Below are positions 1-35,168 of a stretch of 64,000 nt of DNA, one piece after another. Positions within the stretch are counted from its first letter, which is position 1. Each line of letters begins with the position of its first letter. The DNA is taken from positions 9,940-73,939 of the forward strand of contig JBBSJI010000002.1 in NCBI GenBank assembly GCA_038257425.1. Direction: 5' to 3'. Made by a program: the position numbers and the translations under genes. The notes under the pieces are model-generated. The model was not told where the DNA came from. It saw only the letters and a program-made list of their open reading frames with translations, and did not search any database. The stretch comes from Chitinophagales bacterium. GTDB taxonomy: Bacteria > Bacteroidota > Bacteroidia > Chitinophagales > Chitinophagaceae.

Positions 1-238
1 CCACTTTTTTTACCACAATTGCCTTCTTTGGGGCCTTTTTTATAATTTTTGCTATCTTTTTAACTGTTTTCTTTACTACAGGCTTAGGAGCAGGTTTTTT
101 AGCCACTGCCTTCTTAGCTACTGGTTTTTTTACAGCAGGTTTCTTTGCAGGGCCTGCTTTTTTTGCCGGAGCAACTTTTTTAACTGGTTTTACAGCTTTT
201 TTAGGAGCTGGTTTTGACACTTTCTTTTTTGTAGCCAT
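1..238 (-). CDS. Lys/Ala/Pro-rich basic protein, histone H1-like (N-terminal part; runs off the window)
   Basis: ATG at 238 lies one nt after the ileS stop. My reverse-strand translation is MATKKKVSKPAPKKAVKPVKKVAPAKKAGPAKKPAV..., open to the window edge. Not in the ORF track because it is truncated. Confidence 0.5.
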   Translation of the reverse strand, partial: MATKKKVSKPAPKKAVKPVKKVAPAKKAGPAKKPAVKKPVAKKAVAKKPAPKPVVKKTVKKIAKIIKKAPKKAIVVKKV

Positions 239-239
239 A

Positions 240-3200
240 CTATTGTCCTTTTTTAAGTACGTTCACTTTTAATATAGCTTCATTCACTTCAATTTCCATT
301 CCGTCGTTTAAAACAGGCAAAAAAGTAAGTGAGTCAGCTAGAATTTCGGCGCAAATATAATCTTTATATTGAATTATAGACGGTTGCAGCCCTGCATTTT
401 CACTTACTATTATATCTATCCTGTCAGCCAGGTTAAATCCACTGTCTTTTCTGATATTTTGTATCCTATTTATAAATTCCCGTGCATCCCCTTCTTTTTT
501 CAAATGGTCTGTAATTACTATATCTAAAGCTACTGTTAGCTGTCCTTTTACAGCAACTTCATAGCCCGGTATCTCATCAGTAGAAATTTCCAGGTCCTCG
601 GCATTGATAATAATTGGTTCTTCGCCTGAGGTCTTATAATCAGGATTAAGCAGGTATTCATTTTCTAAAACCTGGTCTATAACCGTATTATCAAAAGCTG
701 AGATCTGTTCAGCAGCCCATTTCATTTTTGGCCCCAATTTTTTACCCAGTGTCTTAAAATTGGCTTTAGCTTTTTTCTTAATAAAATCATTATCGGGTCT
801 CAGCACCTCAACTTCCTTAATATTGGTCTCGGCCTTAATTATTTCGGCTACTTTATTTATACGCTCTGCCATCGTGATATCCAAAGCTGGTATAAAAACT
901 TTTTGCAGTGGCTGCCTCACCTTAAGATTTACTTTCTTGTTTTTGCGAAGCGACAATATCAGTGACGAAATATCCTGGGCCAGCTGCATTCTTTTCTCCA
1001 GATCAACATCAATTACAGTGCCATTCACTTTTGGAAAATCGGTATGATGTACAGATTGTTTGTTGAACCTGTTTGATACGGTATTGAGATTATTGAATAA
1101 CCAATCAGCAAAGAAAGGGGCAACAGGAGCCATCAGTTTGCAAAGTGTTTCAAGACATTCATACAAGGTTTGGTAAGCACAAATCTTATCATGCTCATAT
1201 TCTCCCTTCCAGAACCGGCGGCGACAAAGCCTTACGTACCAGTTACTCAAATGGGCATCTACAAAATCTTCAATAGCACGGCCTACCTGTGTAGGCTCGT
1301 AAGCATCAAAATTTTCCTGTACATCTTTGATTAAACTGTTCAGGGAAGATAAGATCCACTGGTCTATCTCGGGCCTGTCTTTTACGGGGATATAATTTTC
1401 TTTAAAAGCAAATCCATCAACATTGGCGTACAATGCAAAGAACTGGTAGGTGTTGTAAAGCGTACCAAAGAATTTACGTTGCACTTCTTTAATACCTTCG
1501 CTATCAAATTTTAAACTATCCCATGGTGATGCATTGGTGATGAGGTACCAGCGGGTGGCATCGGCACCAAAACTATCAATCGTGGCAAATGGATCAACTA
1601 CGTTGCCAAGGCGCTTACTCATTTTATTACCGGCCTTATCCAAAACCAGTCCGTTACTTACTACGGTTTTATAAGCAACACTGTCGAATAATAGTACAGC
1701 CAATGCATGAAGGGTATAGAACCAGCCTCTTGTTTGGTCAACACCTTCGGCAATAAAATCTGCAGGGAAGGCCCCATCCCAACCTTTCCCAAAGGGGAAG
1801 GGGTTACCACCGTTTACTTTCTCCATATCAAGGCCCCATTGTGCGTAAGGCATGGCGCCGCTATCGAACCAAACATCAATAAGGTCTGGTACCCGTTGCA
1901 TGGGTTTGCCTAAAGGACTTACCAAAGTAATTTCATCCACATAAGGTTTATGCAGGTCAAGTATACCTTCGTGCAGGTAATGTTTATTTGTTTCGCCGCC
2001 CAAAACTTCGGCAGCTTTTTTTATTTCGTTGTTCAGTTCTTCAATTGATCCGATACATTTTTCTTCTTCACCATCTTCGGTTTTCCAAATCGGAAGCGGT
2101 GTACCCCAAAAGCGGCTACGGCTCAGGTTCCAGTCAACCATATTCTCCAGCCAGTTGCCAAAGCGGCCGGTGCCGGTGCTTGCAGGCTTCCAGTTGATGG
2201 TCTTGTTGAGTTCAACCATCCTGTCTTTAACTGCTGTGGTTTTAATGAACCATGCATCAAGAGGATAATAAATAATGGGTTTATCTGTACGCCAGCAATG
2301 CGGATAATTGTGTTCGTATTTTTCAACCTTAAAAGCACGGTTCTCTTTTTTGAGCTTAACAGCAATATCAACATTCACATCCACGTAATCTTTTTCATCT
2401 TTATAATTTTTTACATAGCGGTTGCTGAATTCACCAACGCCCTCAACAAATTTTCCCTGCTTATCAACCAGGGTTAAAATGCCGAGGTTGTTTTTTTGTC
2501 CTGCTTTAAAATCATCTGCACCAAATGCAGGTGCTGTATGTACAATGCCGGTACCATCTTCGGTAGTTACAAAATCGCCAACAATAACTCTGAAAGGTTG
2601 AGCGCTTGGCGTTATTTCCTTAATTTTTTCTAAAGTATTTGCTTCGGAGGGGAGGAGTTGTTCGTAAGAAATGCCTTCAAACTCTTTTCCTTTAAATTCC
2701 GCTATAATTTTCCATGGAATAGCCCCTCCGCCCCCCGAAGGGGAGATCTTAGACACTTCAATGTTACTCAGCTTTTCTGAATATTCACCGAAGTTTCCGT
2801 TTTCATTTTCTACCTTAAAATATTTTGTAACCAATGCTTTTGCAAGAATAACATTAATGGGAAGATGTGTATATGGGTTGAAAGTTTTTACCATTACATA
2901 ATCAATGTTAGGTCCAACAGTCAAGCCTAAGTTGGAAGGTAATGTCCATGGTGTAGTTGTCCAGGCCATAAAGAAAGCCCCCCCACCCCCCGAAGGGTGG
3001 ATTGAAGAAGACTCTGCAATTGCAGAAAAAATCTTAGCAACAGCAGGGTGTTGCTCCCTCTCCTTTGGAGAGGGCTGGGGTGAGGTTTTCAGGAGCCGAA
3101 ACATCGCCACCGCACTCGTATCCTTCACATCCTTATAAGTACCTGGCTGGTTTAATTCGTGTGATGACAAGCCCGTACCGGCAGCAGGTGAGTAAGGCTG

Positions 3201-3740
3201 AATGCTTACACTCTCATACAGGTATCCTTTCTTATACAATTCGCTCAGGCACCACCAAAGGGTTTCAACATAATTATTTTCAAATGTTACATAAGGGTCT
3301 TTCAGATCTACCCAATAACCCATTTTTTGGGTTATATCATCCCACTTATCTTTAAACCGCATCACCACTTCACGACATTTTTTATTGTAATCCTCTACAG
3401 ATATTTTTACACCGATATCTTCTTTGGTTATGCCTAATTCTTTTTCAACGCCCAACTCAATAGGCAAGCCATGAGTATCCCAACCGCCTTTACGTTTTAC
3501 CTGAAAACCCTGCATGGTTTTGTAGCGGCAAACCAAATCTTTTAATGTCCTGGAAATAACATGATGTATACCGGGCATACCATTGGCACTTGGGGGACCT
3601 TCATAGAATACAAACGGAGGGTGGCCTTCACGGAACTGAACACTTTTTTCAAAGGTTTCTTCTTTCTTCCATTTTGCCAAAATCTCTTCACTTATGGAAG
3701 GGAGGTTCAATTGCTGGTATTCGGTATATTTTACACTCAT
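240..3740 (-). CDS. ileS: isoleucine--tRNA ligase (long, type-2-like)
   Basis: 1166-aa ORF with a HIGH-region (PGIHHV), KMSKS motif (GNKMSKRLGN) and editing-domain motif WTTTPWTLP. Contains four in-frame GC-hairpin repeat units (see repeat features). Confidence 0.97.
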   Translation of the reverse strand: MSVKYTEYQQLNLPSISEEILAKWKKEETFEKSVQFREGHPPFVFYEGPPSANGMPGIHHVISRTLKDLVCRYKTMQGFQVKRKGGWDTHGLPIELGVEKELGITKEDIGVKISVEDYNKKCREVVMRFKDKWDDITQKMGYWVDLKDPYVTFENNYVETLWWCLSELYKKGYLYESVSIQPYSPAAGTGLSSHELNQPGTYKDVKDTSAVAMFRLLKTSPQPSPKEREQHPAVAKIFSAIAESSSIHPSGGGGAFFMAWTTTPWTLPSNLGLTVGPNIDYVMVKTFNPYTHLPINVILAKALVTKYFKVENENGNFGEYSEKLSNIEVSKISPSGGGGAIPWKIIAEFKGKEFEGISYEQLLPSEANTLEKIKEITPSAQPFRVIVGDFVTTEDGTGIVHTAPAFGADDFKAGQKNNLGILTLVDKQGKFVEGVGEFSNRYVKNYKDEKDYVDVNVDIAVKLKKENRAFKVEKYEHNYPHCWRTDKPIIYYPLDAWFIKTTAVKDRMVELNKTINWKPASTGTGRFGNWLENMVDWNLSRSRFWGTPLPIWKTEDGEEEKCIGSIEELNNEIKKAAEVLGGETNKHYLHEGILDLHKPYVDEITLVSPLGKPMQRVPDLIDVWFDSGAMPYAQWGLDMEKVNGGNPFPFGKGWDGAFPADFIAEGVDQTRGWFYTLHALAVLLFDSVAYKTVVSNGLVLDKAGNKMSKRLGNVVDPFATIDSFGADATRWYLITNASPWDSLKFDSEGIKEVQRKFFGTLYNTYQFFALYANVDGFAFKENYIPVKDRPEIDQWILSSLNSLIKDVQENFDAYEPTQVGRAIEDFVDAHLSNWYVRLCRRRFWKGEYEHDKICAYQTLYECLETLCKLMAPVAPFFADWLFNNLNTVSNRFNKQSVHHTDFPKVNGTVIDVDLEKRMQLAQDISSLILSLRKNKKVNLKVRQPLQKVFIPALDITMAERINKVAEIIKAETNIKEVEVLRPDNDFIKKKAKANFKTLGKKLGPKMKWAAEQISAFDNTVIDQVLENEYLLNPDYKTSGEEPIIINAEDLEISTDEIPGYEVAVKGQLTVALDIVITDHLKKEGDAREFINRIQNIRKDSGFNLADRIDIIVSENAGLQPSIIQYKDYICAEILADSLTFLPVLNDGMEIEVNEAILKVNVLKKGQ
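1771..1805 (-). repeat. GC-hairpin unit R, translated in ileS
   Basis: GCCCCATCCCAA + CCTTTCCC-AAA-GGGGAAGG. On the coding strand it reads NPFPFGKGWDGA. Confidence 0.7.
2722..2747 (-). repeat. GC-hairpin unit A, translated in ileS
   Basis: GCCCCTCCGCCCCCCGAAGGGGAGAT. The coding strand encodes ISPSGGGGA. Identical to unit B at 22 of 26 nt. Confidence 0.8.
2977..3002 (-). repeat. GC-hairpin unit B, translated in ileS
   Basis: GCCCCCCCACCCCCCGAAGGGTGGAT. The coding strand encodes IHPSGGGGA. Confidence 0.8.
3053..3086 (+). repeat. GC-hairpin unit C, translated (antisense orientation) in ileS
   Basis: GCTCCCTCTCC-TTT-GGAGAGGG + CTGGGGTGAGGT. The ileS strand encodes TSPQPSPKEREQ. Confidence 0.85.
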
Positions 3741-25644: not shown

Positions 25645-25995
25645 ATGGGTGCTTCTTCCATGATTGTTTTGATTATTGCAGGGCTTGCATTTTCCATTAT
25701 TACAATTATGGTTGCTAAGGTGCTCACGAAGGGAACAAAAAATGCACAGAAAGGTGAGCCTTACGAATGTGGAATACCTACGCAGGGTAAAACATGGGTA
25801 CAGCTAAACGTAGGCTATTATTTATTTGCTCTTATCTTTTTAATTTTTGATGTAGAACTCATCTTTATTTTTCCATGGGCTGTTGTAGCCAAGTCGGTGG
25901 GCTGGCTTGCTTTGGTAGAGATCATCATTTTCTTTTTTATTTTATTTATGGGATTCTTATATGCACATAAAAAAGGTGCGTTGAAGTGGAAATAG
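25645..25995 (+). CDS. nuoA: NADH-quinone oxidoreductase subunit A
   Basis: 116 aa with 3 TM segments and the conserved PYECG motif. First gene of the nuo cluster. Confidence 0.92.
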   Translation: MGASSMIVLIIAGLAFSIITIMVAKVLTKGTKNAQKGEPYECGIPTQGKTWVQLNVGYYLFALIFLIFDVELIFIFPWAVVAKSVGWLALVEIIIFFFILFMGFLYAHKKGALKWK

Positions 25996-26025
25996 CGCCC
26001 ACCCAAACCCTCCCGAATGGAGGGC
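25996..26025 (-). repeat. GC-hairpin unit D (reverse orientation)
   Basis: CGCCCACCCAAA + CCCTCC-CGAAT-GGAGGG. Begins at the base after the nuoA TAG stop. Confidence 0.8.
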
Positions 26026-26040
26026 TTTAAAGAGTATAAT

Positions 26041-26619
26041 ATGCGGAACAGCTTTTCAAATAATTCAGAGTCTTCAAAAGCCCCTCCGAAGGAGGGGCTT
26101 GGGGAGGCCTCTTTTCCGGGCCAGATACAGGAACTGCCCGGCGGGGGTATTGTATTAAGCAAGCTTGATGAGGTTATCAACTGGGCAAGGTCAAACTCTT
26201 TATGGCCGCTCACCTTTGCTACAAGTTGTTGCGGTATTGAAATGATGGCCGTAGCTTCTGCAAAGTATGATTTCTCAAGATTTGGATTTGAAGTGGCACG
26301 TGCTTCACCGAGGCAGGCAGATGTAATTATTATTGCCGGTACCATAGTAAATAAGATGGGACCGGTTTTAAAAAGATTGTACGACCAGATGGCTGATCCC
26401 AAATACGTGATCGCCATGGGGGCCTGTGCTATAAGTGGCGGACCTTTTTTTTATAATACTTATTCTGTTGTTAAAGGTGCAGATCATATTATACCGGTGG
26501 ATGTATATATACCCGGTTGCCCGCCAAGGCCCGAAGCACTGTTACATGCACTGATAAGCTTACAGGATAAAATAAAAGCCGGTATGACAAGAGAGCAAAT
26601 AAAGACCGGTAAAGAATAA
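26041..26619 (+). CDS. nuoB: NADH-quinone oxidoreductase subunit B
   Basis: Cluster-N2 ligand motifs [15 protein letters not shown] and IPGCPPRPE. The track start at 26017 lies in the loop of hairpin D, so I prefer the ATG at 26041. The N-terminus contains repeat unit E. Confidence 0.93.
26080..26109 (+). repeat. GC-hairpin unit E (forward), translated in nuoB
   Basis: GCCCCTCC-GAA-GGAGGGGC + TTGGGGAGGCC. Encodes [10 protein letters not shown] in the nuoB frame. Confidence 0.85.
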
Positions 26620-28278: not shown

Positions 28279-28283
28279 AAAAA

Positions 28284-28372
28284 TAATAATGAACAAGGAA
28301 CAAGGAATCCCGAACAAGGAAGTGGGTATTCCGATTGTTATTCATAATTCCTTGTTCCTTGTTCGATATTCA
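28284..28372. repeat. tandem-arm long hairpin X1 (GAACAAG-repeat arms)
   Basis: Left arm AATAATGAACAAGGAACAAGGAAT, right arm ATTCCTTGTTCCTTGTTCGATATTCA, giving an 18-bp perfect stem. Fills the nuoD-nuoH spacer. Arms are identical to X2. Confidence 0.9.
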
Positions 28373-28376
28373 TAAG

Positions 28377-29453
28377 ATGTGGAGTTTAAATAAAATATCG
28401 TCTTCCATTCAGGATTGGTTGAACCAAACATTCGATCCAACCTGGTCATTGATCTTTCAAATGCTCATTGCAGGCATTGCTGTGATCAGCCTGTTTGCTG
28501 TGCTGGGTTTAGTTTTAGTGTTGATGGAAAGAAGGGTTGCCGCCTGGATGCAGATCAGGCTGGGACCCAACCGGGTTGGTCCAAAAGGTTTATTACAATC
28601 CTTCGCTGATACTTTAAAATTGTTGGTGAAAGAAGGTTTAACTCCAAATGGTGCTGATAAATTCTTATTCAACCTGGCACCTATCATTGCATTGGTTGTT
28701 GCTATGCTTTTAATGGCACCTATTGCTTTTGCAAAAGATTTTCAACTCTGGAATTTAAATATAGGCGTACTGTATGTATCAGCAGTTTCTTCCATTATGA
28801 TCATCAGTATTTTAATGGCAGGCTGGGCAAGCAATAATAAATATTCATTGATGGGCGCTATGCGTAGCGGTGCACAGATCGTAAGCTATGAATTATCTGC
28901 AGGCCTTTCCATTCTTACGATAGTTGTATTAACAGGCAGCCTGAATATTTCCGACATCATTTATTCGCAGGCAGATGGCTGGTGGATATTTAAAGGACAT
29001 ATACCCGTAATCATTTCGTTTGTAATATTTATAATTGCCGTTACTGCAGAAACCAACCGGGCGCCTTTTGACCTGGCAGAAGCAGAATCAGAATTGACTG
29101 CAGGGTTTCATACTGAATATTCAGGGATGAAATTCGCCTTGTTCTTTTTAGCAGAGTATGTAAATGTATTTATTGTATGTGCTATTGGAGCCACATTGTT
29201 TTTAGGTGGATGGATGCCTTTACATATTGGTAACTGGGAAGGCTTTAATCATGTGATGGATTATATTCCATCCAGCGTATGGTTCTTTGGAAAAACGTTC
29301 TTCCTGATCTTTGTAATTATGTGGTTCAGGTGGACATTCCCCCGCCTCCGTATTGACCAGTTATTGAATTTAGAATGGAAATATTTGTTACCGATAAGTA
29401 TGTTTAATCTACTGTTGGTTACAGCGATCGCAATATTGGGATGGCATTTTTGA
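28377..29453 (+). CDS. nuoH: NADH-quinone oxidoreductase subunit H
   Basis: Motifs RLGPNRVGPKGLLQ and TAETNRAPFDLAEAESEL. I moved the start to 28377 because the track start at 28335 translates the X1 repeat arm (IPCSLFDIHK). Confidence 0.93.
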   Translation: MWSLNKISSSIQDWLNQTFDPTWSLIFQMLIAGIAVISLFAVLGLVLVLMERRVAAWMQIRLGPNRVGPKGLLQSFADTLKLLVKEGLTPNGADKFLFNLAPIIALVVAMLLMAPIAFAKDFQLWNLNIGVLYVSAVSSIMIISILMAGWASNNKYSLMGAMRSGAQIVSYELSAGLSILTIVVLTGSLNISDIIYSQADGWWIFKGHIPVIISFVIFIIAVTAETNRAPFDLAEAESELTAGFHTEYSGMKFALFFLAEYVNVFIVCAIGATLFLGGWMPLHIGNWEGFNHVMDYIPSSVWFFGKTFFLIFVIMWFRWTFPRLRIDQLLNLEWKYLLPISMFNLLLVTAIAILGWHF

Positions 29454-29476
29454 CCCCCAGCCCCCTGAAGGGGGAG
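29454..29476 (-). repeat. GC-hairpin unit H (reverse)
   Basis: CCCCCAG + CCCCC-TGAA-GGGGG, beginning at the base after the nuoH TGA stop. Confidence 0.75.
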
Positions 29477-29541
29477 TATTGCGAAGATTGTGTTGTAAAT
29501 ATTGTAGAAGTATTGAAGTAATAAAATTATAGTGTTATAAT

Positions 29542-30078
29542 ATGAGTGATGATTTAAAAAATAAAGACTTCAAAACTCCCCCCTTGGGGGGCGGGGGGGC
29601 TGGTTGGGGGGTTCAGTATTTTAAAGATATTTTCAATGCAATTAAGTCGCTGCTCATTGGCATGCGCCGTACAGGTTATTATTTTACGCATCACAAGGAG
29701 ATCATCACACAGCAATATCCTGATAACCGGGAAACATTGAATTTGCCGGAACGCTTTAAAGGCGAAGTGATCTTACTGCATGATGAAAACAATGAGCACG
29801 CCTGCACCGGTTGTACTGCCTGTGAGCTGGCATGTCCCAATGCAACTATAAAAATTGTTACGCAATTCGATATTACACCCGAAGGCAAAAAGAAAAAAGC
29901 ATTGGACAAATTTGTGTATCACCTTGAGCTGTGTACCTTATGCAATCTGTGTATCATCGCTTGCCCTACGGATGCTATAAAAATGGCACAGACATTTGAA
30001 CACAGTGTTTTTGACAGGGCAGAGCTGACTAAAATTTTAAATAAACCCGGTTCTAAAATAAGAGAAGGTATCGAGTAA
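29542..30078 (+). CDS. nuoI: NADH-quinone oxidoreductase subunit I
   Basis: Two CxxCxxCxxxCP motifs (CTGCTACELACP, CTLCNLCIIACP). The N-terminus contains repeat unit I. Confidence 0.93.
   Translation: MSDDLKNKDFKTPPLGGGGAGWGVQYFKDIFNAIKSLLIGMRRTGYYFTHHKEIITQQYPDNRETLNLPERFKGEVILLHDENNEHACTGCTACELACPNATIKIVTQFDITPEGKKKKALDKFVYHLELCTLCNLCIIACPTDAIKMAQTFEHSVFDRAELTKILNKPGSKIREGIE
29569..29611 (+). repeat. GC-hairpin unit I (forward), translated in nuoI
   Basis: TTCAAAA + CTCCCCCC-TT-GGGGGG + CGGGGGGGCTGGTTGGGGGG. Encodes KTPPLGGGGAGWG. Confidence 0.75.
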
Positions 30079-30269: not shown

Positions 30270-30845
30270 ATGACAGGATCTGCAATTATATTCTATTTAC
30301 TGGCCGCACTTACATTAGGAAGTGCATGGTTGGCTGTTACCACCAGGATGATCTTCAGGGCGGCAATTTATCTTTTGTTTGCGCTGATAGGTATTGCAGG
30401 TATTTATTTCTGGCTGCAATACGAATTTATTGCTGCTGTTCAGATCGTGGTGTATGTAGGAGGAATCGTAGTAATTATCATTTTTTCAATTTTCCTTACT
30501 CAGCAGGCAGGCGATCTTTTACCTAAACAGAAATTAGGCAGGCAAATATTTTCAGCACTGGCTGCATTTTGTGGAATGGCATTAGTAATGCTGCAGTTGG
30601 CACAACATGAATTTGTTGCAACTGCTAATGCTGCGATTGAACCTAGTGTAGCCAATATCGGATACCAGATGTTGGGAACAGATGATAATGGTTATGCATT
30701 GCCATTTGAAGTGGTAAGTATTTTATTGCTGGCTGCATTGATCGGTTGTATTGTGATTGCGGCCCCCTCTGAACTTCGTTCTTTCCCTGGCGGGAACCCC
30801 AAAGGGGGAGAAAAAACCCTTAGTTCAACCGAAAATAATACTTGA
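30270..30845 (+). CDS. nuoJ: NADH-quinone oxidoreductase subunit J
   Basis: 191 aa with 5 TM segments, positioned between nuoI and nuoK. The last ~27 aa are read through repeat unit L. Confidence 0.9.
   Translation: MTGSAIIFYLLAALTLGSAWLAVTTRMIFRAAIYLLFALIGIAGIYFWLQYEFIAAVQIVVYVGGIVVIIIFSIFLTQQAGDLLPKQKLGRQIFSALAAFCGMALVMLQLAQHEFVATANAAIEPSVANIGYQMLGTDDNGYALPFEVVSILLLAALIGCIVIAAPSELRSFPGGNPKGGEKTLSSTENNT
30761..30810 (-). repeat. GC-hairpin unit L (reverse; compound/degenerate), translated as the nuoJ tail
   Basis: GGCCCCCTCTGAA (compare unit K, GGCCCCTCTAAA) + TTCCC-TGGC-GGGAA + CCCC-AAA-GGGG. Encodes AAPSELRSFPGGNPKGGE. Confidence 0.45.
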
Positions 30846-30883
30846 GTAACATGGAATTTATAATTATAAAAACTGTTAAAAAT

Positions 30884-30916
30884 GTCCTCCCTTTCGGGGA
30901 GGATTTAGGAGGGGCC
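30884..30916 (+). repeat. GC-hairpin unit M (forward)
   Basis: TCCTCCC-TTTCG-GGGAGGA + TTTAGGAGGGGCC, ending 2 nt before the nuoK ATG. Confidence 0.75.
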
Positions 30917-30918
30917 GC

Positions 30919-31236
30919 ATGATGATAGAACCTGGACTATATCAATTGCTTTTTATTAGTACTGCACTGTTCTTCATTGGTGTGTACGGGTTCTTTACCC
31001 GGCGCAACCTCGTTACTATGCTCATGAGTGTTGAGTTGATATTGAACAGCGTGAACCTGAATTTTATTGCATTCAATAAATATTTGTGGTACGACAAACT
31101 GGATGGAGTTTTCTTCACCATTTTTATTATTGCCATTGCAGCCGCAGAAGCGGCGGTTGCCATAGCTATCATAATTAATTTATACCGAAGTCATAAATCT
31201 ATTGATGTGGAGAATGCGGAAGAGATGAAATTTTAA
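30919..31236 (+). CDS. nuoK: NADH-quinone oxidoreductase subunit K
   Basis: 105 aa with 3 TM segments and conserved Glu residues in the membrane helices (SVELILNS, AAAEAAV). Confidence 0.92.
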   Translation: MMIEPGLYQLLFISTALFFIGVYGFFTRRNLVTMLMSVELILNSVNLNFIAFNKYLWYDKLDGVFFTIFIIAIAAAEAAVAIAIIINLYRSHKSIDVENAEEMKF

Positions 31237-31383: not shown

Positions 31384-31422
31384 TCAAACCCCCTCTCTTT
31401 AAGGAGAGGGTTGGGGTGAGGT
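31384..31422 (+). repeat. GC-hairpin unit O (forward)
   Basis: TCAAA + CCCCCTCTC-TTTAA-GGAGAGGG + TTGGGGTGAGGT, ending 4 nt before the nuoL ATG. Confidence 0.85.
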
Positions 31423-31426
31423 AATA

Positions 31427-33445
31427 ATGCCAAACACAACTTACATAACACTGATCATCTTGCTGCCACTGGCAGGCTTTATAATGCTTGGGCTTTTTGG
31501 TAGAAGATATTTTACTAAAACCTCCGGCGTTATAGGAACAGCATTGTTATTGGTTTCAACCCTGCTTGCCTTACATACTGCTTATAGCTATTTCTTTGAG
31601 TATGGAAAAGTGAATGGTGTTTATCAAAAATTAGTTCCACTTAAATATACATGGTTACAATTTTCCGAGGGCGTATCAATTGATATGGGGATCATCATCG
31701 ATCCCATCTCTGTAATGATGCTAATAGTGGTATCCTTTATTTCTTTAATGGTGCATATCTATAGCCTTGGTTATATGAAAGGCGATGAAAGATTCCCTAC
31801 TTATTTTGCATTCCTGGGGTTGTTTACTTTTTCTATGCTGGGACTGGTTATTTCTTCTAACATTTTCCAGATCTATATTTTTTGGGAGCTGGTGGGTGTT
31901 TCCTCTTTCCTGCTGGTTGGCTATTATTATGATAAACCCAGTGCAGTTGCTGCCTGCAAAAAAGCTTTTATTGTAACAAGGTTTGCCGATGTGGGCTTTT
32001 TGATCGGCATTTTAATCCTGTCTTTTTATTCAGGCACATTAGATTTTAATACATTGATCGCAACACTCACTTCTCCTGAAACCAATGGCTATAAAAATGC
32101 AGTGGCAGCATCTTTCCTGGGTGTTTCTGCATTAACCTGGGGATTAGTATTAGTGTTCATCGGTGCTGCTGGCAAGAGTGCGATGTTTCCTTTACATATC
32201 TGGCTGCCCGATGCGATGGAAGGCCCAACACCAGTCTCAGCATTGATACATGCTGCTACCATGGTGGTTGCCGGCGTTTTTTTAGTGGCAAGATTATTTC
32301 CCGTGTTTGCCATTTCAGCTCCCGGGGCTTTGAGCCTTGTTGGTTATGTTGGCGCCATCTCTGCATTATTTGCAGCAGTGATAGCCTGCACACAAACAGA
32401 TATTAAACGGGTGTTGGCTTATTCCACGATGAGCCAGATAGGATACATGATGTTTGCACTAGGTGTTTCAAAATACGGTGGCGAGGAAAGCCTGGGTTAC
32501 ACCGCATCTATGTTTCATTTGTTCACACATGCCATGTTTAAAGCATTGTTGTTTTTAGGCGCAGGTGCTGTAATACATTATATACACAGCAACGAAATGA
32601 AAGACATGGGTGGGTTAAGAAAATATTTACCCATCACCCATATTACTTTTTTAATTGCCTGCCTGGCTATTGCAGGTGTGCCGCCGTTTGCAGGGTTCTT
32701 CAGCAAAGAAGAGATCCTATTGGCTGCTTATCAAAATAACCAGGCCATTTACTGGATAGCATTGATCACTTCCGGCTTAACAGCTTTTTATATGTTCCGT
32801 TTGTACTTCAATATTTTCTGGAGCAAAGACCATCACGCACATACTCAACAGCATGCTACCGAGTTGAAATCTGAAATTACGGAAGCTGTGGCTCCCTCTC
32901 CTTTGGAGAGGGAGGGGGGTGAGGTCCATAAAGGTGAAGGTGGATTTACTATGATGATGCCTTTAGTATTATTAGCTATTGGCGCAGCAGCTGCAGGCTT
33001 TATTCCTTTCGGTCATTTTGTTAGCTCCGATGGAACAAGGCTGGAAGCTGAATTCCATTTGCAGTTTTCCATTGCTCCTGTGGCACTTGGACTGGCAGGA
33101 ATTTTTATTGCTATGTGGATGTATAAAAAAGAAAATAATAAACCCGATAGGTTTGTTGCTTCGCTGCATGGGTTATACAAAGCGGCTTATCATAAATTCT
33201 ATATTGATGAGATCTATTTGTTCATCACAAAAAAAATAATTTTTAATCTCATCGGCAGGCCGGCAGCATGGTTTGATAAAAATGTAGTTGATGGAATGGT
33301 GAATGCAACCGGCAATGGCACAAAAGATATTTCAGAAATTATAAAAAGTTTTCAATCAGGTAAGGTACAGCAATATGCTATTTACTTTTTGGTAAGTGTT
33401 ATTGGCCTGGCATTGCTGTTTATATACGTTTGGAACCCCCGCTAA
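31427..33445 (+). CDS. nuoL: NADH-quinone oxidoreductase subunit L
   Basis: 672 aa antiporter-like subunit with a long C-terminal extension. Contains in-frame repeat unit P. Confidence 0.95.
   Translation: MPNTTYITLIILLPLAGFIMLGLFGRRYFTKTSGVIGTALLLVSTLLALHTAYSYFFEYGKVNGVYQKLVPLKYTWLQFSEGVSIDMGIIIDPISVMMLIVVSFISLMVHIYSLGYMKGDERFPTYFAFLGLFTFSMLGLVISSNIFQIYIFWELVGVSSFLLVGYYYDKPSAVAACKKAFIVTRFADVGFLIGILILSFYSGTLDFNTLIATLTSPETNGYKNAVAASFLGVSALTWGLVLVFIGAAGKSAMFPLHIWLPDAMEGPTPVSALIHAATMVVAGVFLVARLFPVFAISAPGALSLVGYVGAISALFAAVIACTQTDIKRVLAYSTMSQIGYMMFALGVSKYGGEESLGYTASMFHLFTHAMFKALLFLGAGAVIHYIHSNEMKDMGGLRKYLPITHITFLIACLAIAGVPPFAGFFSKEEILLAAYQNNQAIYWIALITSGLTAFYMFRLYFNIFWSKDHHAHTQQHATELKSEITEAVAPSPLEREGGEVHKGEGGFTMMMPLVLLAIGAAAAGFIPFGHFVSSDGTRLEAEFHLQFSIAPVALGLAGIFIAMWMYKKENNKPDRFVASLHGLYKAAYHKFYIDEIYLFITKKIIFNLIGRPAAWFDKNVVDGMVNATGNGTKDISEIIKSFQSGKVQQYAIYFLVSVIGLALLFIYVWNPR
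32891..32925 (+). repeat. GC-hairpin unit P (forward), translated inside nuoL
   Basis: GCTCCCTCTCC-TTT-GGAGAGGGAG + GGGGGTGAGGT. Encodes APSPLEREGGEV. The first 22 nt are identical to unit C in ileS. Confidence 0.85.
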
Positions 33446-33523: not shown

Positions 33524-33563
33524 CGCTCCTTCCCTATCGGGGAAGGAGAAGGAGGATGGGGCC
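33524..33563 (+). repeat. GC-hairpin unit Q (forward)
   Basis: CTCCTTCCC-TATCG-GGGAAGGAG (9-bp stem) + AAGGAGGATGGGGCC. Overlaps the first possible nuoM ATG. Confidence 0.75.
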
Positions 33564-35040
33564 GATGAATCTATCATTTTTGATATTGTTGCCACTGCTC
33601 ACTGCAATACTCATATTGCTGATGAAGAATGCTGCACAGGTTAAGTGGGTGGCACTGGCAGGCGCAACAGCCCAGTTGGTATTGAGTTTTGTATTACTTT
33701 ATCTTTTTCGTGAGCAGCAGGCTGATCGGAATACCACACAAATGTTATTTGAGCAACAATATGATTGGTTCCCTTCCTGGAACATCAGTTTCCATTTTGG
33801 AGTTGACGGTATTTCTGTGGCCATGATCTTATTAACAGCTTTTGTAGTCATCGCCGGTGTGCTGGTTTCCTGGAATGTAACCAAAATGACAAAGGAGTTT
33901 TATTTCCTCCTCATTTTATTAAGTCTTGGTGCATATGGTTTCTTTATTTCGCTTGACCTGTTCATCTTATTTTTCTTTTTAGAAATCGCTGTTATTCCCA
34001 AATATTTACTCATCGGTATCTGGGGAAGTGGTAAAAAAGAATACAGTGCCAATAAACTGGCGCTGATGCTGATGGGCGGCTCTGCACTGGTGTTGGTTGG
34101 CCTGCTCGGGGTTTATTTTTCCAATACTACACATAGTTTTGATTTAATGTACCTATCTCAAATCAATATCCCAATAAAAACACAGATGATCTGTTTCCCT
34201 TTATTGTTTGTGGGTTTTGGTGTATTCACAGCTTTGTTTCCTTTTCATACCTGGGTACCCGATGGTCACTCGTCTGCACCTACAGCAGGGTCTATGTTTC
34301 TTGCCGGCATTTCTATGAAGCTTGGTGGTTACGGTTGTTTACGTGTGGCAACATACATTATGCCCGAAGGTGCAAAGGAATATGCGGAGATCATCATTGT
34401 ACTTTCTGTCATTGCCATTTTATATGGAGCCTTTGCTACCATGATGCAGAAGGATCTTAAATATATCAATGCCTATTCATCGGTGAGTCATTGCGGATTT
34501 GTTTTACTGGGTATTGGGATGCTCACCAGAACATCCATGACAGGTGCGGTGATGCAAATGGTTTCGCATGGTTTAATGACGGCACTTTTCTTTGCTATCA
34601 TCGGCATGATCTACGAACGCACACACACCAGGCAGGTGAGTGAGATGGGAGGGTTGTTAAAGAAGATGCCTTTTATCATCTCTGTATTGTTCATTGTTGG
34701 TTTGTGTTCACTAGGTTTACCCGGACTGAGTGGTTTTGTAGCAGAGATGACCGTGTTCATGGGTTCCTGGGAACATCCTGATACATTTAGAAGGGTAGCA
34801 ACAATTCTTGCATGTCTTTCTATTGTTGTAACAGCCGTTTATATTTTACGGGCTGTTACAAAAACAGCCATGGGCCCATTAAAGGAAGGATTTGAAAGTT
34901 TGACCGATGCAACCTGGAATGAAAAATTAGCAGCACTGATACTGATAGCCGGAATTATTGCGATTGGTGTTGCACCATTCTGGCTGAATGACCTGGTTAG
35001 CCCGGGAGCGGAAGTGATTATGAATAAAATTGGTAAATAA
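33556..35040 (+). CDS. nuoM: NADH-quinone oxidoreductase subunit M
   Basis: 494 aa antiporter-like subunit. The first ATG (33556) lies in the repeat Q flank; alternative ATG at 33565 (MNLSFLILL). Confidence 0.94.
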   Translation: MGPMNLSFLILLPLLTAILILLMKNAAQVKWVALAGATAQLVLSFVLLYLFREQQADRNTTQMLFEQQYDWFPSWNISFHFGVDGISVAMILLTAFVVIAGVLVSWNVTKMTKEFYFLLILLSLGAYGFFISLDLFILFFFLEIAVIPKYLLIGIWGSGKKEYSANKLALMLMGGSALVLVGLLGVYFSNTTHSFDLMYLSQINIPIKTQMICFPLLFVGFGVFTALFPFHTWVPDGHSSAPTAGSMFLAGISMKLGGYGCLRVATYIMPEGAKEYAEIIIVLSVIAILYGAFATMMQKDLKYINAYSSVSHCGFVLLGIGMLTRTSMTGAVMQMVSHGLMTALFFAIIGMIYERTHTRQVSEMGGLLKKMPFIISVLFIVGLCSLGLPGLSGFVAEMTVFMGSWEHPDTFRRVATILACLSIVVTAVYILRAVTKTAMGPLKEGFESLTDATWNEKLAALILIAGIIAIGVAPFWLNDLVSPGAEVIMNKIGK

Positions 35041-35052
35041 CATTGCTAAATA

Positions 35053-35158
35053 AATAATGAACAAGGAACAAGGAATTTCGAATGATGAGCGTCCGCAAGC
35101 GTCTGCGGAGAATTTCGAACTTCTGAAGTCAATATTCCTTGTTCCTTGTTCGATATTC
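35053..35158. repeat. tandem-arm long hairpin X2
   Basis: Same 24-nt and 26-nt arms as X1, with a longer centre containing an inner hairpin TCCGCA-AGCGTC-TGCGGA and a direct repeat GAATTTCGAA x2. Fills the nuoM-nuoN spacer. Confidence 0.9.
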
Positions 35159-35168
35159 AAATAAAAAT

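Follow-up and report, generated by a model that had tools for sequence, protein, structure and literature searches.

The ileS gene of a Ferruginibacter-like member of the Bacteroidota carries, within an intact reading frame, copies of a short GC-rich hairpin repeat. These copies are probably (at a rough estimate of 0.6) nuclease-less remnants of a small selfish element, in which two units of the same kind serve as the terminal inverted repeats (TIRs) around a DUF559 nuclease gene. The window, as the term is used below, is the whole 64-kb stretch of DNA analyzed. The core idea of an earlier note on this DNA, namely that an essential protein tolerates a dispersed palindromic repeat within its reading frame, holds.

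Repeat units in ileS

The host gene and its units are located in the window as follows.

240-3740, minus strand: ileS, a single intact ORF of 1166 aa encoding a type-2 isoleucyl-tRNA synthetase (IleRS), the host of the units
1771-1805, minus strand: unit 1, hairpin CCTTCCCC/TTT/GGGAAAGG and flank TTGGGATGGGGCC, with the peptide NPFPFGKGWDGA at residues 646-657
2721-2765, minus strand: unit 2, solo, complete, and 45 nt long, delimited by codon alignment against empty sites
2977-3002, minus strand: unit 3, the right-hand end of a doublet, hairpin and then G-flank on the coding strand, with the peptide IHPSGGGGA
3003-3052, minus strand: the doublet centre, encoding (E)QHPAVAKIFSAIAESS around the perfect palindrome TCTGCAATTGCAGA, predicted to be helical
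3053-3086, plus strand: unit 4, left-hand doublet end, C-flank and then hairpin on the coding strand, with the peptide TSPQPSPKEREQ

The protein was identified as IleRS by its nearest solved homolog (8C8W, E=6e-228, PDB phmmer) and by the Pfam domains PF00133, PF08264, PF09334, and PF19302, which were read on an identical database protein (P0001). Four units had been described inside the 1166-aa frame, at 1771-1805, 2722-2747, 2977-3002, and 3053-3086; the frame, the coordinates, and the peptides (NPFPFGKGWDGA, residues 646-657; ISPSGGGGA, 332-340; IHPSGGGGA, 247-255; TSPQPSPKEREQ, 219-230) are borne out by the sequence. The units had also been put at ~70% GC in a genome of ~40% GC. The background is correct (0.399 for the window, 0.408 for the ileS coding sequence), whereas the units spread between 0.60 and 0.77 (0.60, 0.77, 0.77, and 0.65 in the order of their coordinates).

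The earlier note proposed an alignment of IleRS indels against the units, which gave a different result at each of the three sites: an exact match for unit 2, one loop replacement for units 3 and 4, and a failure for unit 1. Unit 2 consists of the leader AACATTGAAGTGTCTAAGAT, the hairpin CTCCCC/TTCG/GGGG(GG), and the flank CGGAGGGGCT, and is read as NIEVSKISPSGGGGA within the CP1 editing domain. Relative to the empty site AEVK-L-L-PWK, the 45-nt insertion coincides exactly with one full unit. The site is empty in 77 of 80 Chitinophagaceae loci and in ~110 of 120 close relatives; the unit is present in the window, L001, and L002 in the 80-locus comparison and in 8 of the 120 close relatives, i.e., it shows presence/absence polymorphism. 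Two other loci (L040 and L048) have different, independent units at this site, the one in L048 being read in another frame, and the loop has thus been used recurrently.

Units 3 and 4, described earlier as separate, together belong to a single palindrome of ~110 nt (2977-3086), of which they form opposite ends in inverted orientation; its folding energy is -58.9 kcal/mol, and its centre is perfectly palindromic (TCTGCAATTGCAGA). The doublet allele, ~38-42 aa long, occurs in ~40 of 120 relatives in place of a 17-aa loop, which is a single replacement and not a pair of insertions. The doublet centre is conserved in the doublet-bearing loci L002-L004, L007, L012, L015, and L072 and more diverged in L001, with an excess of synonymous change (pN/pS 0.36).

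Unit 1 lies in the loop between DVWFDSGAMPYAQW and FPADFIAEG, and its stem and flank are of the same type as those of the unit preceding nuoM (n7, 33526-33564). Its interpretation as an insertion fails, since distant genera (Terrimonas, Lacibacter, and others) possess the homologous loop GLDYEKLKAGDPKPFNNNFDGA of identical length (66 nt) without a palindrome, one of the refuting outcomes named in the earlier note. Unit 1 bears the signature of the family but occupies a loop variant that is old and equally long, and it is hence no clean insertion. The allele is found in ~29 of 120 close relatives; at the same loop, L050 and L068 show a clean unit insertion relative to six empty relatives.

The ileS loops concerned are hypervariable in length across the Chitinophagaceae, and their alleles are patchily distributed on the neighbor-joining (NJ) tree of relatives, a pattern that could equally have arisen by recombination instead of repeated insertion. 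In a model of the CP1 domain (pLDDT 75.6), the units are predicted to form coil between the conserved strands 210-216 and 255-261; unit 2 is predicted to be a coil that links helix 317-326 to strand 344-350, and the doublet centre as helices at residues 225-230 and 232-244 of the full-length protein (pLDDT 86-91). The solved structure 8C8W has a turn of five residues at the spot where the window IleRS has 38. Foldseek matches of the CP1 model to IleRS editing domains reach a TM score of only ~0.4. The CP1-domain model was used because a full-length AlphaFold model of IleRS (70 close relatives) had a mean pLDDT of 45.5 and was unusable for mapping units 1-4; unit 1 was placed on the structure by sequence alignment to 8C8W.

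Layout and abundance of the repeat family

The palindromic family has ~16 copies in the window with one common layout, in which a full unit of ~45 nt is formed by an A-rich leader, a C-rich/G-rich hairpin (a stem of 4-9 bp and a loop of 3-5 nt), and a G-rich flank after the hairpin (GGGGTGAGG, GGGGAGGC, or GGATGGGGCC). The ileS units share the hairpin and the subsequent G-rich flank with the units in the nuo spacers, as had been noticed earlier. The unit had been defined as this hairpin plus flank, both of which are present, but so defined it is too short: the hairpin is preceded by a leader, (R)GTCTTCRAARG, which is conserved and extends the unit to ~42-45 nt. Stems vary among copies yet stay complementary (CCCTCTCC/GGAGAGGG, CCCCTCC/GGAGGGG, CCTTCCCC/GGGGAAGG, and CCACCC/GGGTGG).

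A strict scanner for hairpin plus flank detected 10 sites in the window, versus 0-1 sites (0.05 on average) in each of 20 windows simulated with a second-order Markov model, which corresponds to an ~200-fold enrichment over chance. A covariance model of the units was abandoned, since MAFFT aligned the hairpins in shifting register, and a sequence profile with simulated windows was used instead. The units are open in 73% of frames, compared with 52% for random 45-mers, and this modest effect led us to reject freedom from stop codons as an explanation. No direct repeats indicative of target-site duplication were found at the ileS, nuo, MetH, LeuRS, L202, or L206 junctions, where the sole feature is an additional inverted complementarity of 2-4 nt.

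Units in the nuo operon

The family had been located in the nuo spacers and in ileS, which is correct but incomplete, as its units also occur in frame in nuoL and at the termini of Nuo proteins, where they form the N-terminal part of NuoB, NuoD, and NuoI and the C-terminal part of NuoJ.

25993-26111: nuoA/nuoB doublet, right unit read as part of NuoB (+45 nt), absent from L081
27082-27197: nuoC/nuoD doublet, right unit read as part of NuoD, SQSPSFGGVGEA (+36 nt)
29451-29617: nuoH/nuoI doublet, left unit providing the TGA stop of nuoH, right unit in the N-terminus of NuoI
30785-30917: nuoJ/nuoK doublet, left unit lengthening the C-terminus of NuoJ, absent from L081
31232-31425: nuoK/nuoL doublet, its ends being the best matches to DUF559-element ends (E=1e-5 each)
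32887-32932, plus strand: solo nuoL unit, in frame as APSPLEREGGEV, within a 78-nt insertion relative to L081 (profile E=4e-4)
33526-33564, plus strand: pre-nuoM unit (n7), directly 5' of the nuoM start codon

The relative L081, which is 87-91% identical, lacks four of the nuo units and has an orthologous nuoK/nuoL doublet with different stems, and the NuoL loop is either filled or empty across 120 relatives. The interior of the nuoA/nuoB doublet weakly resembles (9/12) the start region of native nuoB; if it indeed holds a homolog of the native start, the doublets may represent two separate insertions and not deletion derivatives.

Association of the units with DUF559 nuclease genes

The exact unit pattern was found in at least 120 metagenomic stretches, on contigs of 30-64% GC, including units inside MetH, LeuRS, PurL, AspRS, IspG, and others. 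All six DUF559 domains detected in the unit-bearing stretches are in frame within host ORFs (MetH, LeuRS in three cases, a type I R subunit, and a solute-binding protein) and are bordered by units, which form inverted pairs in five of the six. The nuclease genes located in frame in a host are listed below.

L086: in MetH
L106, L120, and L178: in LeuRS
L181: in HsdR
L202: in a HisA-like host

The DUF559 genes of L202 (trpB-trpA spacer) and L206 (Hymenobacter) are likewise bracketed by inverted units; they were found by protein similarity with a query including the end-encoded peptides, but the two matches cover only 68 and 83% of that query. A check at the DNA level of eight DUF559 genes on Bacteroidota-type contigs revealed units at the edges of all eight and an inverted pair around seven. 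The arrangement of units around cyanobacterial and Azospirillum DUF559 genes is less regular. Unit-encoded peptides are also present at the termini of ~20 of 120 DUF559 proteins, in the frame used by ileS unit 4, which is that of LTPNPSPKERG at the left end of DUF559 elements. The nuclease assignment is supported by PF04480 matches (E=2e-30 to 7e-36), by the visible motifs DF, E[VI]DG, and V[IL]RF, and by the nearest solved structure, 3HRL (E=1e-18).

The three LeuRS insertions all lie between ...FK[VI] and VFTTRPDT. This site is the counterpart of ...AMFRL / FFMAWTTTPW in IleRS, given the established homology of the Thr-rich motif in class Ia editing domains, and the insertions occupy the position equivalent to the ileS doublet.

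A profile of 10 element ends, taken from repeat ends elsewhere and not picked by the unit pattern, recovers ileS unit 4 (E=5e-5), ileS unit 1 (1775-1804, E=3e-3), and the nuo units, with no matches in 20 simulated windows; units 2 and 3, which have short CCCC/GGGG stems, are beyond its reach. Since no DUF559 gene or remnant was detected in the window, in 81 related loci, or in 240 relatives of IleRS and NuoL, the window genome is linked to DUF559 by similarity of end sequences only. A relaxed profile search of all six-frame stop-to-stop segments of at least 12 aa in the window likewise gave only noise, the ileS doublet centre included, and the doublet interiors were rejected as deleted DUF559 genes; a by-eye likeness of EHPAISKIFSAIAES to DUF559 termini was not used as evidence, given this outcome.

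Origin of the ileS units

The four units belong to one family of short GC-rich hairpin repeats, and we propose that this repeat serves as the TIR of a selfish element of small size. In its full form the element is ~0.5 kb long, has two inverted units of ~35-40 bp around a DUF559 gene encoding a Vsr-like PD-(D/E)xK nuclease, and resides in spacers or in frame in host genes; ileS would keep only nuclease-less forms. Units 4 and 3 would then represent an inverted pair of ends with a short centre between them, unit 2 a solo right end with its leader that was gained within the Ferruginibacter lineage, and unit 1 an old, possibly converted copy. The similarity of ends suggests a descent of the ileS copies from full elements, and DUF559 is the presumed enzyme that moves them, although we know of no transposition chemistry for a lone Vsr-like nuclease. 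The reading frame of the essential host genes is preserved by every insert, including independent insertions and two different frames, i.e., insertion is compatible with translation. Tolerance would be favored by the low number of stop codons and by the Pro/Ser/Gly-rich character of the peptides; the copies that persist would be those that have a length divisible by three, land in surface turns, and leave a working enzyme. In IleRS, the CP1 editing domain would provide two such turns and a catalytic-domain loop the third, and at these turns the inserts would be translated as additional loop residues, presumably harmless to the host enzyme.

A broader reading, which we put forward tentatively and give somewhat less than an even chance, is that these ~0.5-kb DUF559 cassettes with hairpin inverted repeats constitute a class of selfish elements that we found described nowhere. 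The elements would colonize Bacteroidota, Cyanobacteriota, and perhaps Pseudomonadota; insert themselves in frame into the surface loops of proteins that are essential (IleRS, LeuRS, MetH, PurL, NuoL, and others); be produced by read-through within the host protein as one of its internal domains, intein-like but with no protein splicing; use their repeat ends as flexible Pro/Gly/Ser linkers as well; and decay to nuclease-less scars as in ileS, with a steady gain of loops in conserved enzymes. No prior description of the family was found in a literature search that included DNA and peptide motifs and left subscription journals mostly uncovered; this agrees with the claim that no equivalent is known from the Bacteroidota, and does not prove it.

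An unlikely alternative is that the units are of the REP/REPIN type and owe their mobility to a tyrosine transposase (RAYT or TIRYT) whose gene lies elsewhere in the genome, DUF559 being a passenger or a homing-type nuclease gene that targets repeat pairs. The units resemble REPs, BIMEs, and REPINs in their size (30-45 nt), hairpin, and frequent inverted pairing; the flank GGGGTGAG fits GGGGWSAS, which was reported for TIRs flanking TIRYT genes (PMC3733652); RAYT subclass 2.6 occurs mostly in Bacteroidetes, flanked by "atypical secondary structures", and the REPs of subclass 2.4 insert in frame into their own transposase genes (PMC6006769). The less regular arrangement of units around the cyanobacterial and Azospirillum DUF559 genes points in the same direction. 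Nevertheless, neither a GTAG nor a CGTC tag was found at the hairpin foot of the 16 window units and 10 element ends, which have an AAAG-type leader and a GGGGTGAGG-type flank, and no ORF with both HUH and Y motifs was found in ~0.75 Mb (the window and L001-L081). In addition, the eight unit-edged DUF559 genes, seven of them bracketed by inverted pairs, look like genes between an element's own ends.

An origin of the hairpins as host regulatory structures under selection at their present sites, acting for example in mRNA processing or stability or in translation coupling within nuo, with the copies in coding regions as by-products or a means of tuning translation speed, seems distinctly improbable. 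Such a role would fit the five nuo spacers in which an inverted pair is able to fold over the start-codon region, the Shine-Dalgarno-like position of G-rich flanks 5-12 nt 5' of start codons, and the complementarity that stems keep while their sequence changes. On the other hand, the L081 nuo operon looks functional without four units, the unit also occurs in unrelated genes and on contigs of 30-64% GC, and presence/absence polymorphism together with association with a nuclease gene are hallmarks of selfish DNA.

In yeast mitochondria, some GC-rich hairpin elements are bypassed by ribosomes. By this precedent, the segments could be present in DNA but missing from the mature protein through bypassing or removal, in which case the frame would be irrelevant; we consider this very improbable, as every insert is in frame and stop-free in essential genes, across independent insertions and two frames, the doublet centre has a synonymous excess (pN/pS 0.36), and no intein or Hint domain is among the Pfam matches of full-element hosts. 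It is just as hard to believe that the segments are ordinary lineage-specific, GC-rich loop expansions or artefacts of metagenome-assembled genomes: the loops are hypervariable in length and the length of unit 1 is that of an old loop variant, but the same sequences also occur in non-coding spacers in both orientations, exceed chance ~200-fold, recur in independent assemblies from NCBI, JGI, ENA, and Logan, and are shorter than sequencing reads, which contradicts this explanation for units 2-4 and leaves it possible only for part of unit 1.

Significance

In-frame selfish DNA in essential enzymes is usually seen as a Rickettsia curiosity or as the domain of inteins. Here, a single 64-kb window from a free-living lineage of soil and freshwater contains it in the genes for at least five housekeeping proteins. 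Such units will mislead gene callers, resulting in split genes and false N-termini, and will distort alignments and phylogenies of marker genes such as ileS and leuS. If true, the link to DUF559 would mean that one of the larger "unknown" nuclease families gains a function and a lifestyle, and it would account for recurrent Pro/Ser/Gly-rich indels and spurious small ORFs in annotations of Bacteroidota and cyanobacteria. It would also provide a natural experiment on the load of an extra loop or domain on a tRNA-synthetase editing domain, as well as a tractable route to a new site-preferring mechanism of DNA insertion.

Comparison with known systems

The mobile GC clusters of yeast mitochondria are likewise short GC-rich palindromes that spread in an AT-rich genome and sometimes enter coding sequence; they differ in being organellar, in belonging to an unrelated sequence family, and in having no nuclease gene.

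Inteins and Vsr-like homing endonucleases (I-Bth0305I family; "fractured genes", PMC2677866; PD-(D/E)xK survey, PMC3424549) share with the full elements a selfish nuclease in frame at conserved sites of essential genes, membership in the Vsr/DUF559 clade, and repeated colonization of the same site in orthologs (three times in LeuRS). The in-frame nuclease is seen in full elements at other loci, whereas the window itself has none. The Pfam matches in hosts of full elements comprise only host domains, DUF559, and the related nuclease model MTES_1575; since no Hint or intein domain is among them, the insert presumably stays in the mature protein. Hairpin inverted repeats, nuclease-less derivatives, and many unrelated target genes further distinguish the element from inteins.

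REPs, BIMEs, and REPINs (PMC3116915; PMC3733652; PMC6006769) are similar in that they are GC-rich hairpins of 20-45 nt, with inverted pairs folding into a long hairpin, and are found mostly at gene ends but sometimes in frame in ORFs, where they can give stop codons. The units are indeed short imperfect palindromes, often in inverted dimers; however, the gene between unit pairs encodes a DUF559 PD-(D/E)xK nuclease and not an HUH tyrosine transposase.

MITEs, such as QMITE of Coxiella (PMC5896051; see also PMC3184786 and PMC10969869), are gene-less, non-autonomous TIR pairs that extend or interrupt ORFs in frame. The units agree with MITEs in having TIRs in common with a gene-carrying element, as the DUF559-element ends match units of the window. 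They show neither a target-site duplication at the junctions inspected nor, by the relaxed profile, a DUF559-derived interior in the window doublets. Other differences are that the presumed parent has no DDE transposase, that solo ends are common, and that the interior of the nuoA/nuoB pair may include the native nuoB start region (the weak 9/12 match).

The Rickettsia palindromic elements (RPEs; Ogata et al., 2000, cited in PMC3733652 and PMC3184786) are dispersed palindromes that lie in frame in housekeeping genes and also in non-coding DNA, are translated as surface peptides, and are polymorphic among relatives. The same behavior, a dispersed palindrome in frame in an intact ORF, is seen for ileS units 2, 3, and 4 as well as for nuoL, nuoB, and nuoD, and the ileS doublet is RPE-sized (~110 nt, ~37 aa). 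The comparison with RPEs made in the earlier note is therefore apt for behavior, but RPEs are not the only precedent, since in-frame REPs and MITEs were reported in several phyla (PMC3733652; PMC6006769; PMC3184786; PMC5896051). By analogy, the units appear to work like RPEs, a likeness of behavior alone, and membership in RPE-1 to RPE-8 is unlikely. The host here is free-living and belongs to the Bacteroidota, in contrast to an obligate intracellular alphaproteobacterium; the basic unit measures only 30-45 nt, is GC-rich in a 40% GC genome, and occurs singly or in inverted pairs; and, whereas RPEs have no known autonomous partner, the units described here match the ends of a nuclease element.

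Repeat units in ileS

The ileS product is a type-2 isoleucyl-tRNA synthetase (IleRS), with Priestia megaterium IleRS2 as the best solved homologue (8C8W, E = 6e-228), and the IleRS Pfam domains are present on a public protein identical to it. The nearest genomes are Ferruginibacter MAGs of the Chitinophagaceae (amino-acid identity up to 90%). The earlier note had reported four GC-rich palindromic units read in frame within this intact gene, and re-checking the window sequence reproduced their coordinates and peptides.

240-3740, minus strand: ileS, intact ORF, 1166 aa
1771-1805: unit 1, IleRS residues 646-657
2722-2747: unit 2, IleRS residues 332-340 (whole insert 2721-2765)
2977-3002: unit 3, IleRS residues 247-255
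3053-3086: unit 4, IleRS residues 219-230
2977-3086: doublet (units 4 and 3 inverted around a short centre), predicted fold -58.9 kcal/mol, perfectly palindromic centre TCTGCAATTGCAGA

The GC content of the units is 0.60-0.77 vs. 0.41 for ileS. A Lys/Ala-rich, histone-H1-like coding stretch lies directly downstream of the gene (2-238, minus strand) and runs off the window edge.

Each unit consists of a C-rich arm, a loop of 3-5 nt, a G-rich arm, and a G-rich flank (GGGGTGAGG, GGGGAGGC, or GGATGGGGCC), and approximately 12 further copies of this layout occur at 25.9-33.6 kb. A strict hairpin-plus-flank scan yielded 10 sites in the window, whereas twenty Markov-2 simulations averaged 0.05. The repeat observation as a whole is borne out, and the ileS units are members of a dispersed repeat family. 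An A-rich leader, (R)GTCTTCRAARG, is conserved ahead of the hairpin among copies set in one orientation, which brings the length of the full unit to about 42-45 nt. The stems vary among copies, yet remain complementary (CCCTCTCC/GGAGAGGG, CCCCTCC/GGAGGGG, CTCCCC/GGGGAG, CCTTCCCC/GGGGAAGG, CCACCC/GGGTGG). The usual arrangement is an inverted pair of 110-195 nt (C-flank-hairpin, spacer, hairpin-G-flank), each predicted to fold into a single long hairpin.

Variation of the ileS loops

The ileS loops holding units 3 and 4 (site A), unit 2 (site B), and unit 1 (site C) were compared in 80 Chitinophagaceae loci and 120 closer proteins (identity at least 81%). Nearly all relatives have the empty form of site B, ...AEVK-L-L-PWKI, whereas the window and two related loci (L001, L002) carry 45 additional nt (2721-2765) that correspond exactly to leader, hairpin, and flank. 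Among the 120 close relatives, the unit-2 insert was found in 8 and a different unit (ASxKGGGLEGA) in 2; loci L040 and L048 contain further independent units at this site, the latter in another reading frame. The site A loop lies between ...VAMFR and FFMAWTTTPW and comes in two forms: a short one of 17 aa (AIKNEKLKIKNVDGEVF) and a long one of 38-42 aa, in which very variable unit-encoded peptides flank a conserved centre, EHPAISKIFSAIAES. The long form is present in about 40 of the 120 relatives and also in L072, whose overall identity is just 69%. The stem sequences of the two hairpins differ between species, but both remain hairpins.

At site C, the window sequence GLDMEKVNGGNPFPFGKGWDGA is one of two alleles within the genus (the alternative being HFPFENKETFKQN) and has the same length as GLDYEKLKAGDPKPFNNNFDGA of Terrimonas, Lacibacter, and others, whose DNA lacks the palindrome; hence unit 1 does not qualify as a clean insertion. 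Unit 1 nevertheless bears a perfect family signature in its DNA and is matched by an outside profile of element ends (E = 3e-3). A clean unit insertion in the same loop was observed in L050 and L068 relative to six empty relatives. The expected coincidence of indels with units was therefore exact for unit 2, took the form of a single loop-allele replacement for units 3 and 4, and failed for unit 1. The interpretation in the earlier note is partly supported: the principle of palindromes lying in frame in an essential gene stands, but not unit 1 as such an insertion. At least unit 2, the nuo copies, and the nuoL copy are insertions, and the same loops have been struck repeatedly.

The site A and C alleles are patchily distributed among the 120 relatives at least 81% identical (window 1738-1870, residues 624-668). 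Together with the L072 doublet, this pattern is suggestive of intragenic recombination or of ileS segments being exchanged among lineages of the Chitinophagaceae. Some MAG records (L061, L024, L026, L039) bear the title 'Brevundimonas vancanneytii' or 'Chitinophaga pinensis', yet their IleRS are 71-74% identical to the Ferruginibacter-like protein of the window; these taxonomic labels are probably wrong.

Every insert in essential genes keeps the reading frame, and pN/pS is 0.36 in the ileS doublet centre vs. 0.17 in flanking ileS, consistent with inserts that are translated and tolerated. A full-length AlphaFold model of IleRS was discarded for mapping (pLDDT 45.5). In a CP1-domain model (pLDDT 75.6), strands 210-216 and 255-261 enclose units 4 and 3, which are modelled as coil flanking two confidently predicted helices; unit 2 is also modelled as coil, with a helix on one side and strand 344-350 on the other. 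Foldseek recognised the IleRS editing domain, with a TM-score of only about 0.4. Structure 8C8W has a 5-residue turn where site A of the window has 38 residues.

Units in the nuo operon

The nuo operon of related locus L081 (87-91% identical) is collinear with that of the window, and the alignment breaks at the units: L081 lacks the nuoA/B, nuoJ/K, and nuoL/M units as well as the internal nuoL insert. The NuoL loop reads ...AVAPSPLEREGGEVHKGEGG in the window, FWNKEHHPHGEHHGEGGF in the 644-aa baseline form, and APSPLERAGGEV, SPSPLERGWGEV, or TPSPSGEGRGEV in dozens of relatives. In the window, NuoB gains 15 residues and NuoD gains 12 from units, which also provide the NuoI N-terminus, a C-terminal extension of NuoJ, and the nuoH stop codon. 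The interior of the nuoA/B pair weakly matches the native nuoB start region (9/12), which, if real, would favour two separate insertions.

The start codons of nuoK, nuoL, and nuoM are preceded, at a distance of 5-12 nt, by the G-rich flanks of right-hand units (30905-30921, 31412-31429, 33545-33567). These flanks read AGGAGG or GAGGT and resemble Shine-Dalgarno sequences; one study describes this phylum as a non-user of such sequences (PMC6847099). A second, AT-rich inverted-repeat family, AATAATGAACAAGGAACAAGGAAT, is also present.

28280-28372: AT-rich repeat, nuoD/nuoH spacer
35042-35168: AT-rich repeat, nuoM/nuoN spacer

A look-alike, ..EQGTEEQGTRNK.., is translated in the IleRS site A loop of L050 and L047, and a related AAGAAATAAGAAATGAGAAA palindrome occupies the nuoC/D spacer of L081 (1845-1960), where the window has a GC-rich pair.

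Association with DUF559 genes

The exact subtype CCCTCTCCNNNGGAGAGGGN{1,4}GGGGTGAGG occurs in at least 120 stretches of public metagenome contigs (GC 30-64%). Almost one-quarter of the units found there (35/145) sit deep within open frames of at least 200 codons, including those for MetH, three LeuRS, PurL, AspRS, IspG, a DinB-like polymerase, an FGGY kinase, a TonB receptor, and T9SS-tailed proteins. The units are very likely dispersed repeats that are read in frame.

Pfam revealed an in-frame DUF559 domain (PF04480, Vsr-like PD-(D/E)xK nuclease) inside MetH and inside two of these three LeuRS (metagenome loci L106 and L120). A DUF559 profile search of the window, its related loci, and the metagenome loci found six such domains, every one in the metagenome loci; the window and its relatives contain neither a DUF559 gene nor a remnant of one. 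All six lie in frame in larger ORFs: MetH, three LeuRS, a type I R subunit, and a solute-binding protein. Units occur at the edges of each, as an inverted pair in five. The MetH element, DFIRPKD / LTPNPSPKERG - DUF559 - PLSFGEGLGVRS / IQEEGLDYIGAF, has near-perfect inverted ends of about 35 nt. The three LeuRS insertions (L106, L120, L178) all fall between ...FK[VI] and VFTTRPDTIFG, at the entry to the editing domain just ahead of the Thr-rich motif, a point which, by the established homology of class Ia editing domains, is the counterpart of IleRS site A (...AMFRL / FFMAWTTTPW).

A search with the MetH element peptide retrieved 309 proteins (E ≤ 1e-10) from Bacteroidota (Hymenobacter, Cyclobacteriaceae) and Cyanobacteria (Nostoc, Fischerella), mostly 110-190 aa long and carrying the annotation 'very-short-patch-repair endonuclease' or 'endonuclease domain-containing protein'; about 20 of the best 120 have unit-encoded terminal peptides in the ileS unit 4 frame. 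DNA was checked for two loci whose called ORFs are free of unit peptide. In L202 (trpB-trpA spacer, 40% GC), a DUF559 gene lies between inverted units TTCACCTCACCCCAGCCCTCTCCTTGAGGAGAGGG ... CTTCCTTCTCCTCAAGGAGAAGG..GGATGAGGTGAA, and in L206 (Hymenobacter roseosalivarius, 59% GC) between CCTCACCCCCCGGCCCCCTCTCCAGGGGGGAGAGGGGG ... CTCCCCCTCTCCCCCTGGAGAGGGGGCCGGGGGGTGAGGC. L202 contains a second DUF559, which SSPSGAGGHG joins to the N-terminus of a HisA-like protein; this peptide has the form of ISPSGGGGA in ileS. Two inverted units thus bracket DUF559 in seven of eight cases (the exception being L105), several of them in frame in essential genes. In Picosynechococcus and Azospirillum plasmid records, DUF559 genes adjoin similar hairpin-plus-G-flank units in a less regular arrangement.

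A profile of ten element ends not selected by the unit pattern matched the nuoK/L pair (E = 1e-5), ileS unit 4 (5e-5), the nuoL unit (4e-4), and ileS unit 1 in the window, and nothing in twenty simulated windows; ileS units 2 and 3 were not recovered. The units are probably the ends of DUF559 elements.

In L086, L106, L202, and L206, inverted complementarity of the two element ends extends 2-4 nt past the conserved CCTCA...TGAGG into copy-specific bases (GA/TC, AGT/ACT, TTCA/TGAA, TTG/CAA), and several empty sites have a GGNGARG-like string at the future G-flank position; both could hint at how targets are chosen. Gene calling goes astray around the elements, with host genes split or misnamed (L202 4580-5396; L206 1-2932; proteins P0303, P0342, P0294, P0300): small DUF559 ORFs are called 'lysyl-tRNA synthetase', 'methionine synthase', or 'DNA methyltransferase', and one purL has been divided into two. 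In-frame DUF559 hosts may accordingly be far more numerous than those examined.

Origin and spread of the units

We assign a probability of about 0.6 to the combined explanation that the in-frame repeats derive from DUF559 elements. The ileS copies would be nuclease-less derivatives: a pair of ends (units 4 and 3), a solo right end with leader (unit 2), and an old copy (unit 1). DUF559 would drive unit spread, selection would retain only frame-preserving copies in surface turns, and the Pro/Ser/Gly-rich peptides may serve as harmless linkers. That DUF559 itself moves the units is a tentative proposal to which we give slightly less than even odds. Several points speak against the DUF559 explanation as a whole: the window and its related loci lack DUF559, the profile of element ends misses units 2 and 3, no target-site duplication was seen, a lone Vsr-like nuclease is not known to have any transposition chemistry, and the nuoA/B interior weakly matches the native nuoB start. 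A serious rival is movement by a REP/RAYT-type mechanism, with DUF559 a passenger or a homing nuclease targeting pairs; the unit flank conforms to GGGGWSAS, a motif of repeats associated with TIRYT, and the Bacteroidetes have a RAYT subclass of their own with 'atypical' hairpins.

Comparison with known systems

Among the known homing endonucleases of introns and split inteins are Vsr-like nucleases (PMC2677866, PMC3424549); Pfam matches of hosts carrying the full element include no Hint domain. The listed papers that mention DUF559 describe, in title or abstract, neither an inverted-repeat element nor an in-frame lifestyle, and the peptide motifs PLSFGEG, PSPKERG, GEGLGVR, and SPLERG are absent from the papers listed for them; since most subscription journals lie outside the literature covered, the novelty of such an element is probable rather than certain. 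The units behave like Rickettsia palindromic elements, which the earlier note considered the only well-known precedent. That view was too narrow: further precedents are REPs inside ORFs (PMC3733652), REPs lying in frame in cyanobacterial and Bacteroidetes RAYT genes (PMC6006769), and MITE-ORF fusions (PMC3184786, PMC5896051). In-frame selfish repeats are a known kind; the link of the present units to a functionally uncharacterised nuclease family is unexpected and testable.
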